27,080 nt of DNA from a virus (IMGVR_UViG_2645728048_000018), one strand, 5' to 3'. Positions 14,379 to 22,124 are shown, counted from the stretch's first letter. Notes: a model not told the origin generated them from the letters alone. Program-made: numbers and translations.

Positions 14379-14399
14379 AAAAAAACCGCCTCAGCGGTT
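14379..14399 (-). terminator. Hairpin plus U7 between the G-T stop and the H start
   Basis: Minus strand AACCGC-TGAG-GCGGTT followed by TTTTTTT. The same AACCGC/GCGGTT stem recurs at 22104-22124. Confidence 0.4.
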
Positions 14400-14407
14400 C
14401 TCATCAT

Positions 14408-15087
14408 TCATGACTGTGCTGCGAAGCTCAGCGCGTCTTCCAGCGCCGCAAACGGATCCACCTCCGGCTTATCCTCATCCTCGCCCCAGCAGAGCATGGC
14501 GTCCTTCAGTGCAACATTCATCCCCTGTGCCCCAAAAACCGCTTTCACGATCTGTGCATTACGGATATCCCCGCGCTCATCACCCAGCGGGGATACCCTG
14601 TCGAACTCCATCCACATCATCGCCTCGCTCACACTCAGGCTGTGCCGCAGTTCGGATAAGGTGCGCCCCAGACGGAGCGCAAGTCGCATCAGAAAGCGAA
14701 TTTCCGGGCGGGCTACTTTTTTCTGGCCGACTCTGCATCAGCGATCAGTTCCAGTGCCTGACGCAGCAACCGGGCATGTACCGGACCATAGACGGCCAGC
14801 ACCTGCTCACGGTCGTCCGGAGCGAACACCCGCTGCAGATCCGTATCACACAGGACATCGCAGAACAGCGTCACATCCGCTTCCAGGTTACGGCGGGTTT
14901 TCGCCACCACCGACAGGGTATCGTCATCCTCTCCATCACCATTGAGCACTTCCTGCCACAGATACCAGGCCTCTGCCGAAGGCTCCCGCAGCACCACGCT
15001 GACATTACCCCATTCCGGCACCTTCACCGTTTTATGACGAAACCCTGACAGTCTGGCCAGCGCCAGCGTTTTCAGATCCTTTTTCAT
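14408..15087 (-). CDS. Tail assembly chaperone G-T fusion made by programmed -1 ribosomal frameshift
   Basis: The T-frame ORF (14408..14689, MRLALRLGRTLSELRH...) extends upstream in the -1 frame to overlap the G 3' end. The slippery heptamer A_AAA_AAG (minus strand, plus coordinates 14716-14722) lies immediately before the G stop. Confidence 0.7.
14713..15087 (-). CDS. G: Tail assembly chaperone G
   Basis: Start at the internal Met (MKKDLKTLALARL...), 124 aa, acidic. Ends ...AESARKK with the A_AAA_AAG slippery site in the last codons. Confidence 0.75.
   Translation of the reverse strand: MKKDLKTLALARLSGFRHKTVKVPEWGNVSVVLREPSAEAWYLWQEVLNGDGEDDDTLSVVAKTRRNLEADVTLFCDVLCDTDLQRVFAPDDREQVLAVYGPVHARLLRQALELIADAESARKK
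14716..14722 (-). promoter_or_regulatory. -1 frameshift slippery site A_AAA_AAG
   Basis: Heptamer seen directly in the sequence at the G/T junction, conserved in position with the lambda G-T frameshift. Confidence 0.7.
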
Positions 15088-15101
15088 GATGACCCATCCC
15101 C

Positions 15102-15818
15102 TTATCCGGCGGCTGCGCTCACTGTCACGGTGCATTCAACAGACGTCACACTCTGTGCTTTCTCTGCCGAATCGGTCACCACGCAGGTATATTTCCCCGC
15201 ATCAGCGGACTGCGCTCCTGGCTTACTGAAGGTGTCTGTCGTCTGCCCGTCAACCGGCTGACCATCCTTCTTCCAGGCGTATTTATACGGCGGCGTTCCC
15301 CCGTTGGCACTGACTGACATTGTCAGCAGCGCACCTGTATTCACGGTAAGTGTTTTATCCAGATTTTTCACAAACGCCAGCGGTACCACAAAGGACACCG
15401 GTTTGCCTTTCATACGCAGTGAAAACGTTGCTGCCACCACGCCGTTGGTACCGGATGACCAGGTGTGCTGACGCACTTCCGCCAGGAACTTAAAGCCCTT
15501 ACCGGACGGAAACAGCACCTTAAACGCATACAACGCGTCATTGTCATAGGCATCACGCAGGGCGTTCTGGGCCTGATTCAGATAAAAATTACCCGACATG
15601 GAAATCTCAGACGACGCCCCCAGACCGTTGATGTTCTCCTGCTCGGTGGAGCAGAGCGTGGTCACATCAATATCCTGTTTCTGACCGGCGGTGAACTGGA
15701 CTTCCTTGATGGTGCAGTCCAGGCGCAGATATTCCGCCTTATCCATAGTTTCAGCAGTCGCCGGGGCAGATGAAATCATCACCTGCGTCAGCTGTGAGCG
15801 TTCATACAAAGCAGACAT
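15102..15818 (-). CDS. Major tail protein (non-lambda type) with C-terminal Ig-like domain
   Basis: 238 aa. Position upstream of the G/G-T chaperones. The C-terminal ~80 aa (TLTVNTGALLTMSVSANGGTPPYKYAWKKDGQPVDGQTTDTFSKPGAQSADAGKYTCVVTD) looks like an Ig-like fold. No similarity to lambda gpV. Confidence 0.7.
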   Translation of the reverse strand: MSALYERSQLTQVMISSAPATAETMDKAEYLRLDCTIKEVQFTAGQKQDIDVTTLCSTEQENINGLGASSEISMSGNFYLNQAQNALRDAYDNDALYAFKVLFPSGKGFKFLAEVRQHTWSSGTNGVVAATFSLRMKGKPVSFVVPLAFVKNLDKTLTVNTGALLTMSVSANGGTPPYKYAWKKDGQPVDGQTTDTFSKPGAQSADAGKYTCVVTDSAEKAQSVTSVECTVTVSAAAG

Positions 15819-15834
15819 TCTGCCTCCTGATAAT

Positions 15835-19937: not shown

Positions 19938-20104
19938 TCGCCATGCTCCGCATCACGTTTCTTTTTCTGACCTGCCGGACGTCGCACCGTGATGTACTCC
20001 GCCTTTCCCAGGCGAACCAGCACCTCCGCACACGGCTGTGCCACATCACGGATATCCCCGGCCCGGGCATCATGCGTGCCCTGCAGATATCGGATCTTTG
20101 CCAT
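19883..20104 (-). CDS. Hypothetical small protein between capsid and portal genes
   Basis: 73-aa ORF (MAKIRYLQGTHDARAGDIRDV...) overlapping the portal start by 55 nt. Preceded by the hairpin GGGAGGCG-TG-CGCCTCCC. Weak support. Confidence 0.3.
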   Translation of the reverse strand: MAKIRYLQGTHDARAGDIRDVAQPCAEVLVRLGKAEYITVRRPAGQKKKRDAEHGECGTFYGEPEKTRNQDVT

Positions 20105-20148
20105 AACCTGTTACGGGAGGCGCACGCCTCCCGTCCTCCTTATCAGAC

Positions 20149-22086
20149 TCAGCCGCCGGACGCACTGCCGTAGTTCACTCCGGTGATCACCGCCACCGCC
20201 GCAGTACGGCGACGACGCCAGTTGATCCAGCGCTCCGCACGGATGGCCACGCTGCCTGTCTGGAACATGGAAACCAGCTCCACCGGGGACGGCGTGGTAC
20301 TGTCGCCGGTCGGCTCAGACTGCATTTCCAGTGATGCCTCGCGGGACATATCCACTGCCACGCCGCCGTCATCAGCCAGATAAATATCCGGGGCATTCAC
20401 CAGCACCAGCTGGTCACCCACGTACTGGGAGACAATCACCGGCAGCCCCTGGAAGGAGCCACCCAGCAGGGTCATGTCCGGGTATTCCTTCTGACCCAGC
20501 GCATTTTTACGCATGGACAGTGCCAGGGCATTGGTGCTGGACATCAGCCAGACCGCACCGGTGGGCTGCAGGTTTGCTGCCACAAACTGTCCAAACGCAG
20601 CCTCTGCATCCGCATCCGGGTTACCGGTTGATGCCGTGCCCTTCACATCATGGGTGATGGACGCCGGGGAGACATCTGCCACTGCGGCTTTTTTCGGGTC
20701 CACAAAGTCTGTATCCAGACGCGCCACCACCGCTTCCGCCAGCGCATTACGGACCAGTGCATCAGCAGCCGGACTGGAAAAACGGATCAATTCTTCCGTC
20801 AGTACCGCAATGGCCGACACCTTCGCATGACTGAAGGTGATGGATTCAAAATCAAACTTCGTCAGGGGTTTTGCCTTACCCTCACCCACCCAGCCGGCAG
20901 CACCGCCGGACACCTGGGCGTGCACACGGATATTGAATGGCACCTGACGAAGTGCAGGGATCCCGCCCTGACCAAATCGCCCGATAATGGTCTGCGGACG
21001 CAGGTAATCAATAAAGTCCTGTGCGTATTCCTGATATTCAGACAGGCTGCCTGCCCACTGCGGATCCGTGGTGGTCCCCGCGCCCACTGCCGATTTCAGG
21101 ACATGATGCAGACGACTGTCATCCGGATACTGACGACGGGCCACTTCCAGGGCTTCAGATCGGACGCCTTTAGCCGCAGCCAGCGATTTGGCAAAGCGGG
21201 CGAAGCCAATCCCCTTATCCAGTTTCTGCTCCACACGGATCACCGGCGCAGAAGCCACCGCGGCCACATTCCCGTTACCGGCCTGTTTCACCGGCTGCGC
21301 CGTGGCGGCCTTACCGGCTTCCAGTTCACGCAGGCGCTTCAGGTGCGCATCCACCTGACGGATTTCCGCTGCGGTGTTGTCGTAATGCTCTTCCTCCTCC
21401 ACATCCAGCGTGCGCCCTTCCTCTGCGGCTTTGGTCATGACCTCCTCAAGGGAGGCTGCCAGCGCTGCACGCTTGTTTTCAAAACTTTTAATCTGTTCGC
21501 CAATATTCATTATGGTCTTTTCCTTATGAAAAACGGTTGTTGACTGTGCCGCAGCGCCGGCAGAAGATGCGATTTTCACCACCGGTTTCCGGTTGCCGGA
21601 CGCGGCAGAAAACGGGCGGTCGTAAGATTTAATGGTCCGGATGGTGCATTCCGCATTCGCGGGCACGGTGACGGCAGACACCTCCATCAGTTCCCAGCGC
21701 AGAAAATGCAGTCCGCCTCCGTCCAGAAAGGTGTATTCATGGGGACGGAAGCCCACGGACAGCCCCCTGACCAGCCCGGTCTTAATGGCCGCCCAGACCT
21801 CATCCAGCCGGGCAGCCAGTTGCGACGGCATATCCGGTACGGGCTTCACCAGTGTTGCCGTGATTTCCAGCCCTTCGCTGACCCGGCGCACCGTACACTG
21901 CCCCACCGGGCGGGAATGGTCATGCTGCCAGAGAAACGGGATCGCACTGCCAAACTCCGCGCCCTCCGGCTCCAGGATGTCACCATCCCGATCCGGAGAA
22001 GGCGTTGACGCAATCCCGGTGATCACCCGTTCATCCTCACTGAAGGATTTCACCGTCAGCAGGGAACAGGCCCGTTTAAGAGTCAC
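20149..22086 (-). CDS. Prohead protease (HK97 S78-type) fused in frame to major capsid protein (HK97 fold)
   Basis: The N-terminal ~190 aa carry prohead-protease motifs (GIASTPSPDRDGDILEPEGAEF...IPFLWQHDHSRPVGQ...GLSVGF). The C-terminal ~450 aa have a coiled-coil delta/scaffold-like segment followed by a capsid-like domain. An internal in-frame ATG with an upstream AAGGAAAAG lies at 21510. Confidence 0.75.
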   Translation of the reverse strand: MTLKRACSLLTVKSFSEDERVITGIASTPSPDRDGDILEPEGAEFGSAIPFLWQHDHSRPVGQCTVRRVSEGLEITATLVKPVPDMPSQLAARLDEVWAAIKTGLVRGLSVGFRPHEYTFLDGGGLHFLRWELMEVSAVTVPANAECTIRTIKSYDRPFSAASGNRKPVVKIASSAGAAAQSTTVFHKEKTIMNIGEQIKSFENKRAALAASLEEVMTKAAEEGRTLDVEEEEHYDNTAAEIRQVDAHLKRLRELEAGKAATAQPVKQAGNGNVAAVASAPVIRVEQKLDKGIGFARFAKSLAAAKGVRSEALEVARRQYPDDSRLHHVLKSAVGAGTTTDPQWAGSLSEYQEYAQDFIDYLRPQTIIGRFGQGGIPALRQVPFNIRVHAQVSGGAAGWVGEGKAKPLTKFDFESITFSHAKVSAIAVLTEELIRFSSPAADALVRNALAEAVVARLDTDFVDPKKAAVADVSPASITHDVKGTASTGNPDADAEAAFGQFVAANLQPTGAVWLMSSTNALALSMRKNALGQKEYPDMTLLGGSFQGLPVIVSQYVGDQLVLVNAPDIYLADDGGVAVDMSREASLEMQSEPTGDSTTPSPVELVSMFQTGSVAIRAERWINWRRRRTAAVAVITGVNYGSASGG

Positions 22087-22103
22087 ATCAGCCTCCTGAA
22101 AAT

Positions 22104-22124
22104 AAAAAAACCGCCGGAGCGGTT
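22104..22124 (-). terminator. Hairpin plus U-run between terminase large subunit and capsid gene
   Basis: Minus strand AACCGC-TCCG-GCGGTT followed by TTTTTTTATTTT, then the AGGAGG RBS of the capsid gene. Confidence 0.4.

Follow-up and report, generated by a model that had tools for sequence, protein, structure and literature searches.

Hairpins followed by U-runs punctuate the structural genes of this virus, and these elements are probably Rho-independent terminators in a Q-antiterminated late operon, predicted to silence the structural genes in the lysogen. The window (the whole stretch analyzed, 27,080 nt of IMGVR_UViG_2645728048_000018, with gene identities checked by Pfam) contains five such elements, all on the minus (coding) strand and each a canonical hairpin plus U-run: sites A, B and C, upstream of the capsid, major tail and tape-measure genes, and one element each at the J-lom and lom-stf junctions. 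A strict terminator scan of the minus strand returned 9 sites, versus 0.57 +/- 0.72 expected from 30 dinucleotide shuffles. Intercistronic gaps, which total 687 nt or 3.2% of the operon, hold 6/8 of its strict sites (binomial P = 2.8e-8). With a loose consensus scan, no enrichment was seen (14 found versus 11.4 expected, and 15 versus 12.7). Sites in the window have GC stems of 5–9 bp, loops of 4–6 nt and 6–8 U, and lie on the sense strand only. Stem lengths are 7 bp for A, 5 bp for B (weak), 7–9 bp for C, and 8 bp for both J-lom and lom-stf; directly 3' of these stems, the transcribed strand carries U7, U6, U7, U6 and U6, respectively.

The hairpins predicted before the capsid, major tail and tape-measure genes were all found in place on the minus strand, by inspection, strict scan and folding. 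Site A (22099–22125) occupies the 63-nt gap that separates terL (stop at 22150) from a single gene in which prohead protease and major capsid are fused (GTG at 22086); the portal gene is downstream of this capsid gene. The stem of site A (22125–22108) reads GAACCGC/UCCG/GCGGUU(U) and is followed by U7-A-U4, which abuts AGGAGG (22097–22092) without a spacer. Its folding energy is -10.9 kcal/mol (z -3.1), and 81 close relatives keep its stem unchanged but vary in the loop. Site B (15831–15855) has the stem CCCGC/CGCGU/GCGGG (15855–15841) followed by U6AUUAU, 23 nt upstream of the major tail gene ATG (15818), with AGGAGG at 15828–15823. Taken alone it is a weak hairpin (-9.9 kcal/mol, z -1.6). 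Sites A and B have UUUUUUAUUnUCAGGAGGC in common. Site B is the second half of a tandem pair in the pre-major-tail gap; the first half, a weak extra hairpin at 15882–15898 (minus strand, AGGUCACGGUGUGACUU and then a U-rich run) recognized by sequence and the loose scan, overlaps the stop of the tail-terminator gene and is kept in close relatives. Site C (14379–14402), with the hairpin (GA)GAACCGC-UGAG-GCGGUU(UU), begins 6 nt past the stop of the tail chaperone gene T; its stem spans 14402–14381, its U run ends at 14379, and 19–21 nt separate it from the tape-measure gene ATG (14360). It folds with -10.8 kcal/mol (z -2.2), and some close relatives carry the alternative stem AACCUGC/GCAGGUU. The window has no extra gene separating terL from A, the tail-terminator gene from B, or T from C. 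These three sites are free-standing intra-operon terminators rather than moron terminators.

The original prediction also placed similar elements after J and after lom, and both are there on the minus strand, in the sequence, in both scans and in folding. The J-lom terminator, GGGCGCC-AGAAAU-GGCGCC(U) + U6 (4895–4919; stem 4919–4900), occupies a 67-nt gap before lom and folds with -15.7 kcal/mol (z -3.1); in phage 2851 it carries a compensatory C-G to U-A change. The lom-stf terminator, AGCCCGCC-GGUUCA-GGCGGGCU + U6 (4217–4244; stem 4244–4223), folds with -20.7 kcal/mol (z -3.9). It closes the lom moron, lom being an Ail/Lom family member, and is the only site in the window that qualifies as a moron terminator.

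Three further minus-strand hairpins of the operon stand apart from these five. The 342-nt gap between I and J, the junction where relatives have a pre-J terminator, contains a very stable palindromic hairpin of 11–13 bp (8515–8544; strict scan; -28.3 kcal/mol, z -6.4), 104 nt from the J start. It has a broken U-run on either strand, a partial match to what a terminator requires. Within the minor tail gene M, the strict scan and folding identified a terminator-like hairpin, GGCAUGGU-GGUU-ACCGUGCC + U5 (10904–10923). This hairpin is kept in close relatives, for which coding constraint could account, and is absent from all distant loci examined; it is probably not part of the system. The third, recognized by sequence and folding, follows the capsid gene (ACGGGAGGC-GUGC-GCCUCCCGU, 20113–20134; -17.5 kcal/mol, z -3.4) and lacks a U-run. 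It is immediately preceded by AAGGAGG and followed, after 8 nt, by the ATG (20104) of a gene for a 73-aa protein that matches phrog_829. Relatives show a compensatory change from A-U to G-C in this hairpin, and the only distant relative sharing the head module, L098, has the same order of Shine-Dalgarno, hairpin, 8 nt and ATG after its capsid gene, with an unrelated stem. This position between Shine-Dalgarno and start codon suggests a role other than mRNA 3' stabilization.

Two of the sites do share the AACCGC/GCGGTT stem, as first noticed, with A and C identical at 21/23 positions (GAACCGCUnnGGCGGUUUUUUUA). The likeness covers hairpin and U-run and stops at the hairpin edges, the flanks being unrelated. 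CCGC...GCGG is present in 39/94 unique terminators from related late regions, and the chance of a common 6-nt stem core is 0.02–0.03 per terminator pair, or ~0.2 over all ten pairs that five sites can form. The stem is a generic terminator design. The common origin that had been read into it is not borne out, given this level of chance sharing, the unrelated flanks of A and C, and the other stems found in orthologues. A dispersed repeat, REP-like or a mobile hairpin, was considered and rejected, as the A/C likeness is confined to hairpin and U-run and orthologues have different stems.

A comparison of the motif in related prophages, which the original prediction had put forward as a check, showed that positions are conserved with covariation and that stem sequences turn over. 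Our distant set comprised 19 distinct loci from other Enterobacterales genera, whose major tail protein is 57–82% identical. A terminator ending ~19–24 nt before the major-tail start was present at 19/19 of these loci, and one lying 16–25 nt before the tape-measure (H) start at 17 of 19. Pre-J terminators were found at 8 distant loci, and in L098 the site A junction holds a terminator whose stem differs. For the pre-major-tail site, 5/6 pairs have changed on both sides among the distant loci. The covariation score there was 0.392, compared to 0.142 +/- 0.036 in shuffles (reached by 0/500), and it fell to <=0.071 when pairing partners were slid. Because stem sequences vary while pairing stays, the structure is under selection. 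In addition, 6–8 U are retained at every orthologous site, even where the stem changes. This argues for a terminator, since a terminator needs a U-tract and a simple stability hairpin does not. Fifteen of the T-to-H gaps examined at distant loci have an extra ORF between T and the pre-H terminator, in most cases a sense-strand lipoprotein or membrane-protein ORF; two gaps add an antisense antirepressor-like ORF. Recombination breakpoints among the 81 close relatives showed no clustering at the sites.

Most likely, then, the sites are true intrinsic terminators, with termination itself predicted from their structure. In the lysogen, polymerase arriving from moron or stray promoters would be unmodified by Q and would be released at the next hairpin and U-tract. 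Capsid, tail-tube, tape-measure and tail-tip genes would stay silent, and moron transcripts would be short. After induction, polymerase loaded with Q at the late promoter would pass all sites and produce one long transcript. Both the read-through and the benefit to the lysogen are expected by analogy, termination efficiency and read-through being assumed from lambda-type Q proteins. Both the Q gene and the late promoter fall outside the window, which ends in the lysis region; in the close relatives phage 2851 and PPompW_132418, the annotation places Q upstream of the same structural module. In line with the model, a TonB_C lipoprotein gene of the window (25401–25742) has a promoter-like site at 25787–25760; downstream of this gene, the window scan found no strict sense terminator before site A. 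The direct observations behind the model are the anatomy, the gap enrichment, the positional conservation with covariation, the coincidence with moron slots, and the absence of such sites in two antitermination-free phages.

The insulator model also bears on placement. The major structural genes are immediately preceded by sites because the operon has gaps only there, and since each gap must also accommodate a ribosome-binding site of its own, the U-tract runs up against the Shine-Dalgarno. The model would place 3' ends mainly where Q is lacking, and an absence of 3' ends during late transcription would therefore not refute it. Among the several functions originally offered, punctuation read through under Q is the best supported, by the anatomy, the HK97 junctions, the covariation and the position of Q in relatives; the suggestion of common origin is the part that fell.

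Hairpins should fold in read-through mRNA as well and may thereby play secondary roles in RNA stability or translation initiation; the ~20-nt spacing to the start codon and the hairpins bracketing the capsid gene fit RNA-level roles equally well. It is conceivable, if unlikely, that the sites are dual-use cassettes of fixed geometry, which would terminate unmodified polymerase in the lysogen and set protein stoichiometry in late mRNA. They would do the latter by delimiting stable capsid and tail-tube sub-transcripts and by enhancing translation initiation, and the post-capsid hairpin would be a variant that bridges the Shine-Dalgarno to a start codon 30 nt away.

Rather unlikely is a reading based on differential decay, in which hairpins act on finished RNA by blocking 3' exonucleases or protecting new 5' ends after endonuclease cuts, and capsid and major tail plus chaperone segments outlive the rest of the late transcript. 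The capsid gene is indeed bracketed by hairpins in the window (A and 20134–20113), in lambda (D-E and E-FI) and in HK97, despite different neighbor genes, and B and C enclose the V-G-T segment. Moreover, the post-capsid hairpin, with no U-run, cannot terminate, yet is conserved with compensatory changes. But a U-tract is needless for stability, and 6–8 U are found at every orthologous site. Protein demand does not match either: A would stabilize terminase mRNA and B the mRNA of low-copy connector proteins, and the pre-H and pre-J sites flank low-copy genes.

Spacing raises another reading, which we regard as improbable: that the conserved unit is a translation-initiation cassette, with terminator likeness secondary. 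Here, the hairpin would shield the ribosome-binding site from long-range pairing and the U-rich tract would serve as a landing pad for the ribosome (S1). Hairpin-to-start spacing is tight across genera for both the major tail (19–24 nt) and tape-measure (16–25 nt) genes, the U-run leads directly into an AU-rich stretch and GGAG, the sequence common to A and B falls in line with this, and the capsid gene start is a weak GTG. Minimal packing of a terminator and a ribosome-binding site would, however, give equal tightness. Tape measure and J are low-copy proteins, the Shine-Dalgarno is weaker or farther at J-lom and lom-stf, and the pre-J hairpin of the window is far from its start. P2 and Mu, moreover, make abundant capsid and tail proteins without such units.

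More doubtful still is the idea that the sites are leaky even for Q-modified polymerase, such that the transcript falls stepwise along the operon and attenuation sets gene dosage. The sites are spread over the entire operon, and this is one of two options raised for phage L (PMC8022706). Yet such steps would reduce capsid and major tail mRNA relative to terminase and connector mRNA, the opposite of virion stoichiometry, and Q-type antiterminators are established to make polymerase resistant to intrinsic terminators (PMC7547250). Finally, a reading of the sites as duplicates of a single repeated or mobile sequence, or as neutral scars of moron gain and loss with no present function, is very improbable: the near identity of A and C and the place of site C in a classic moron slot are what favors it, but the likeness ends at the hairpin, a shared 6-nt core is expected ~20% of the time among five terminators, orthologues have other stems, compensatory changes across genera speak against neutrality, and breakpoints do not cluster at the sites.

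The layout of the window is an ordinary example of a known feature, for which insulators bypassed by Q are our preferred reading. Annotated in HK97 (2000) and visible in lambda, this layout gains one further lambdoid example here, a prophage of the long-tailed Stx-phage type. As found, this is of little importance, and the comparative result is of modest use. Conserved sites before the major tail, tape-measure and J genes, together with absence in two antitermination-free phages, make a cleaner case that the sites are selected rather than incidental. The listed sites are also well-defined targets for direct work in EHEC prophages, in which leaky transcription of late genes is relevant to the expression of toxin and effectors.

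HK97 is the closest match. Its record (NC_002167) lists "putative terminators" before the major tail (6692–6719), tape-measure (8398–8422, after the moron gp15) and J (15107–15129) genes, the same junctions as in the window. As in the window, sites also occur before the protease/capsid unit and after the capsid gene, bracketing the latter with hairpins at 3309–3335 and 5192–5213. There too, the ribosome-binding site follows directly on hairpin and U-run, and Q controls the late operon. HK97 differs in its stem sequences, in having gp15 before the pre-tape-measure site, and in an extra site after the major tail gene. The placing of the portal gene after the capsid gene and the fusion of protease with capsid further set the window apart from HK97. 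These putative intra-late-operon terminators are attributed to Juhala et al. (2000), as cited in PMC3594210.

By the same scan, HK97 has 5 internal late-region sites and lambda 4–5. Lambda terminators are found at D-E, I-J, J-lom (18920–18935) and lom-stf; those after J and lom are presumably the t'J terminators that Luk and Szybalski mapped in 1983. As in the window, the capsid gene (E) has a hairpin with U7 directly before it and one lacking a U-run after it (E-FI). Lambda 19612–19633 is a direct sequence homologue of the lom-stf site at 4244–4217, including the downstream UUUUUUGUGGGGUGAAUAUG. In lambda, unlike in the window, V and H are preceded by neither a gap nor a hairpin (T and H overlap), and the lambda head module is unrelated. 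Applied to the late region of Mu, the scan returned no sites, and in the late operons of P2 it returned no internal sites between genes (two genomes); late control in P2 and Mu is by activators, not antitermination.

Moron units, as described by Hendrix and colleagues, consist of promoter, gene and terminator, and the lom-stf site of the window ends a classic one. In the slot of site C, HK97 and 15 distant relatives have an extra gene and then a terminator, whereas the window has no moron there. P22-like phage L has a predicted terminator at the end of its procapsid module, inside a single-promoter late operon (PMC8022706). Phage L differs from the window in being a podovirus with unrelated structural genes, and its terminator is known from in silico prediction only. 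Its authors state that the function of intra-late-operon terminators is unknown, and offer suppression of spurious transcription or stepwise attenuation as candidate roles (PMC8022706). Beyond phages, the pLS20 conAn and Tn916 systems use an antiterminator of RNA plus protein, not Q, and belong to another host and element type. ConAn has RNA-seq support, whereas our reading of the window comes from sequence. Like the window, these systems have many intrinsic terminators within one very long operon, which only polymerase modified at the operon start bypasses (PMC8191782). For pLS20 conAn, it has been proposed, with RNA-seq data in support, that many internal terminators combined with processive antitermination blunt spurious transcription (PMC8191782).

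On its minus strand, the window has a late operon that is lambdoid and of the long-tailed Stx-phage type, with 98.4% identity to phage 2851 over 9.5 kb and 99.9% identity to vB_EcoS-783R2. Gene identities and order were assigned from Pfam matches and ORF maps. Downstream of terS (23808–24371) lie terL (22150–23811), a prohead-protease/major-capsid fusion gene (20149–22086), a 73-aa gene matching phrog_829 (19883–20104), the portal gene (17352–19937) and four head–tail connector genes, the last of which is the tail-terminator gene (15885–16229). These are followed by the gene for the Ig-domain major tail protein (15102–15818), chaperone genes G and T, the tape-measure gene (11118–14360), M, L, K and I in that order, J (4938–8411), lom (4271–4870) and the tail fibre gene (2893–4212), all on the same strand. 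In close relatives that share the structural module, a gene for a Q antiterminator lies upstream; the window itself ends in the lysis region. At the other, cargo end are genes for T3SS effectors, one NleF-like (981–1550) and one OspG-kinase-like (1736–2440). Near these, at ~205–275 (minus strand), is a lookalike of a tRNA 3' half, with a long variable arm and the 3' end ...GGGGGTTCAAATCCCCCTCTCTCCGCCA. ARAGORN called no tRNA gene there, and the sequence is probably a tRNA fragment.

Five terminator-like elements had been predicted in this operon, and all are present on the coding strand where they had been placed: between terL and the capsid fusion gene (site A, 22099–22125), before the major tail gene (site B, 15831–15855), before the tape-measure gene (site C, 14379–14402), between J and lom (4895–4919) and between lom and the tail fibre gene (4217–4244). 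Each is a hairpin followed by 6–8 uridines. Folding energies lie between –9.9 and –20.7 kcal/mol, and four of the five hairpins score better than nearly all shuffles; site B is weak taken singly (z = –1.6). A loose built-in terminator scan of the window gave no enrichment over shuffles, whereas a stricter scan of the minus strand found 9 sites versus 0.57 ± 0.72 in dinucleotide shuffles. The signal is separated from background only under the stricter definition. Only seven gaps of at least 40 nt separate cistrons in the operon; together they span 687 nt, or 3.2% of its length, and hold six of its eight strict sites (P = 2.8e-8). A strong hairpin that lacks a U-run occupies the remaining gap, downstream of the capsid gene; a hairpin is thus present in essentially all gaps of the operon. 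In an Rfam scan of the whole window, no family passed gathering thresholds. We dismissed RNase III sites and REP elements on our own reading of stem length and sequence alone. Two further hairpins were seen on the minus strand. One, at 10904–10923, is a good terminator-like hairpin with U5 that falls within the M (minor tail) coding sequence; close relatives keep it and distant ones lack it, and it may reflect chance or coding constraint. The other, with a U-rich run, is truncated by the window edge (27058–27080) and lies upstream of Rz and of ORFs for small membrane proteins.

To follow these elements in relatives, we used a close set of 81, comprising phage 2851 and 80 IMG/VR records with capsid proteins 96–100% identical. 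The hairpins persist in this set, and where changes are present they are compensatory. At site C, AACCGC/GCGGUU alternates with AACCUGC/GCAGGUU; the post-capsid hairpin shows an A–U to G–C change, and the J–lom hairpin a C–G to U–A change. Identity breakpoints among the 81 (498 in total) do not cluster at the sites, and we rejected the idea that the hairpins mark recombination or module boundaries; the breakpoints are scattered in coding regions (portal, terL, tape-measure gene). A distant set of 22 loci, with 57–82% protein identity, was collected from GTDB genomes by alignment of major-tail-protein homologues. Its genera include Symbiopectobacterium, Serratia, Phytobacter, Buttiauxella, Leclercia, Pectobacterium, Raoultella, Klebsiella, Enterobacter, Kosakonia, Superficieibacter, Brenneria and others. 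A strict terminator ends ~19–24 nt before the major-tail start in all 19 distinct distant loci, and one ends 16–25 nt before the tape-measure start in 17 of the 19. Eight of the 19 have a terminator before J, and many distant loci have one after the capsid gene. Stems vary widely across loci, but a single order is maintained: hairpin, U-run, AU-rich stretch, GGAG, ATG. At the pre-major-tail site, both-side changes occur in five of the six consensus pairs, with 89.8% of cells paired, and the covariation score is 0.392, compared to 0.142 ± 0.036 for shuffles (0/500 reach 0.392) and ≤0.071 when pairing partners were slid. For the pre-tape-measure site, stems of unequal length were misaligned by MAFFT/RNAalifold and no formal consensus was obtained; support there comes from per-locus hairpins rather than a formal covariation score.

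Two of the sites had been said to share a stem, and this is correct: A and C are identical at 21 of 23 positions, with the match stopping at the hairpin. We rejected the common origin proposed on this basis, given the stem-core statistics and the orthologues. CCGC...GCGG occurs in 39 of 94 unique terminators from related loci and lambda, and the chance that two terminators share a 6-nt stem core is 0.022–0.032 per pair, which comes to ~0.2 over the ten pairs that five sites form. The stem type of site C (AACCGC-UUCG-GCGGUU) recurs at orthologous sites of several distant loci. That of site A is not kept in the sole distant locus with the same head module, which has GGCCCGC/GCGGGUU instead. The shared stem is a design found commonly among terminators, frequently with loops of the UNCG type, and is no sign of common descent. 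Sites A and B match at 24 of 26 positions in the U-tract and ribosome-binding site (UUUUUUAUUnUCAGGAGGC). This tract resembles the consensus of pre-major-tail sites in other genera, and we read the match as functional convergence too.

The post-capsid hairpin lies between an AAGGAGG Shine–Dalgarno element and the ATG of the 73-aa phrog_829 gene, an arrangement spanning 20104–20141 (minus strand). The Shine–Dalgarno is directly 5' of the stem, and the distance from stem to ATG is exactly 8 nt. The same layout is seen with three different stems, in the window, in a variant allele (the L081 group of relatives) and in the Enterobacter locus L098 (4712–4742, GGAGG GCGGGG-GAAA-CCCCGC CATATTGC ATG), which suggests a hairpin-bridged ribosome-binding site. 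We take this arrangement to resemble that of phage T4 genes 38 and 25. The I–J gap (8412–8753, 342 nt) holds an unannotated element with a perfect palindromic hairpin of 11–13 bp (8515–8544) and, on the plus strand, a near-consensus promoter, TTCACA-16-TATAAT (8617–8644), followed by a hairpin and U7 (8716–8748). Of 5426 complete E. coli genomes, 1612 have it, with up to 6 copies, and prophages with unrelated head modules share it. The element is a candidate small-antisense-RNA gene or moron. [quoted passage not shown] The distribution of the I–J element is broader than that reported for HnrS, in a text that gives no HnrS sequence or coordinates, and a duplex search against the hha start region yielded nothing convincing.

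The T/tape-measure junction is an insertion hot spot in distant relatives (loci L084–L104; e.g. L098 10788–11123, L085 11478–11882, L093 11437–12297). In 15 distant loci the interval from T to the pre-tape-measure terminator is 0.3–1.7 kb, and most of these gaps contain a sense-strand ORF for a lipoprotein or small membrane protein; two add an antisense antirepressor-like ORF. Among the inserted products are lipoproteins, a 111-aa membrane protein that is conserved and has a zinc-ribbon motif, and a 296-aa TPR-like protein. This slot is that of HK97 gp15, the founding "moron". Morons by definition carry their own promoter and terminator, and hence are expressed from a repressed prophage (PMC3594210). 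Before the major tail gene, L098 has a terminator, a KilA-type gene and a second terminator. The L–K junction is another moron slot within the tail operon: a mere 10-nt gap in the window (~10076–10085), it holds an Arc-like repressor and an Ant antirepressor gene in phage 2851 (8975–10142). Upstream of terS, between Rz and the HNH/terminase genes, the window encodes a 113-aa lipoprotein bearing a TonB C-terminal domain (TonB_C; 25401–25742, minus strand), which also matches the PHROG 'Rz-like spanin' phrog_1267. This gene comes with a promoter-like site of its own, in which the –10 is extended (25787–25760), and the strict scan found no sense terminator between it and site A. Non-Q transcription into the virion genes is therefore a concrete possibility, and the terminators are positioned where they would stop it.

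For comparison, we applied the same strict scan to Mu and P2, whose late operons are driven from activator-dependent promoters. The Mu late region has no site anywhere, and the P2 late operons have no intergenic internal site; the two internal matches in P2 both fall within coding sequence, one at the E/E' frameshift site. The P2 record lists terminators at operon ends and one putative attenuator within the O operon. A control of two genomes is thin; what it shows is in line with the view that high densities of internal terminators are tolerated, or favored by selection, solely when polymerase has been rendered termination-resistant.

The original observation was accurate and the feature is real. 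As to function, we consider it fairly probable that these are true intrinsic terminators against unmodified polymerase in the lysogen, overridden by Q-modified polymerase. The analysis demonstrates the anatomy, the enrichment, the conservation of stem and U-tract, the sites' coincidence with moron slots and the contrast seen in P2 and Mu. We infer that unmodified polymerase would be halted at the sites in the lysogen, that Q-modified polymerase would read through them after induction, and that this would confer a selective benefit. The earlier suggestion of Q-dependent read-through of the late transcript is reasonable, and its companion, common origin, is not. An analogous argument, with RNA-seq support, has been made for the pLS20 conjugation operon (PMC8191782). 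Differential decay of the late transcript is a rival explanation, favored by the bracketing of the capsid gene by hairpins in three phages of differing gene order. Another is that each hairpin belongs to a translation-initiation cassette, in line with the fixed spacing of ~20 nt. Leaky attenuation is disfavored, since capsid and tail mRNA would drop relative to terminase. That the hairpins are simply repeats or scars is disfavored by the covariation. These roles need not exclude each other, because the hairpins fold in read-through RNA.

The HK97 record annotates "putative terminators" at corresponding positions: before the protease gene (3309–3335), after the capsid gene (5192–5213), before and after the major tail gene (6692–6719 and 7443–7462), before the tape-measure gene and directly after moron gp15 (8398–8422), before I (13799–13824) and before J (15107–15129). 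Our strict scan recovers 5 of these seven. In lambda, the D–E junction has a hairpin with U7 immediately ahead of the E start. A hairpin that lacks a U-run follows E, and others are found at I–J, J–lom and lom–stf, the last being a clear sequence homologue of the window element at 4244–4217. The phenomenon is therefore old. For phage L, the possible roles put forward for such a site are partial termination, or stopping transcription begun without antitermination (PMC8022706). Features of this kind have long been known, and the sites in the window are an ordinary further instance.
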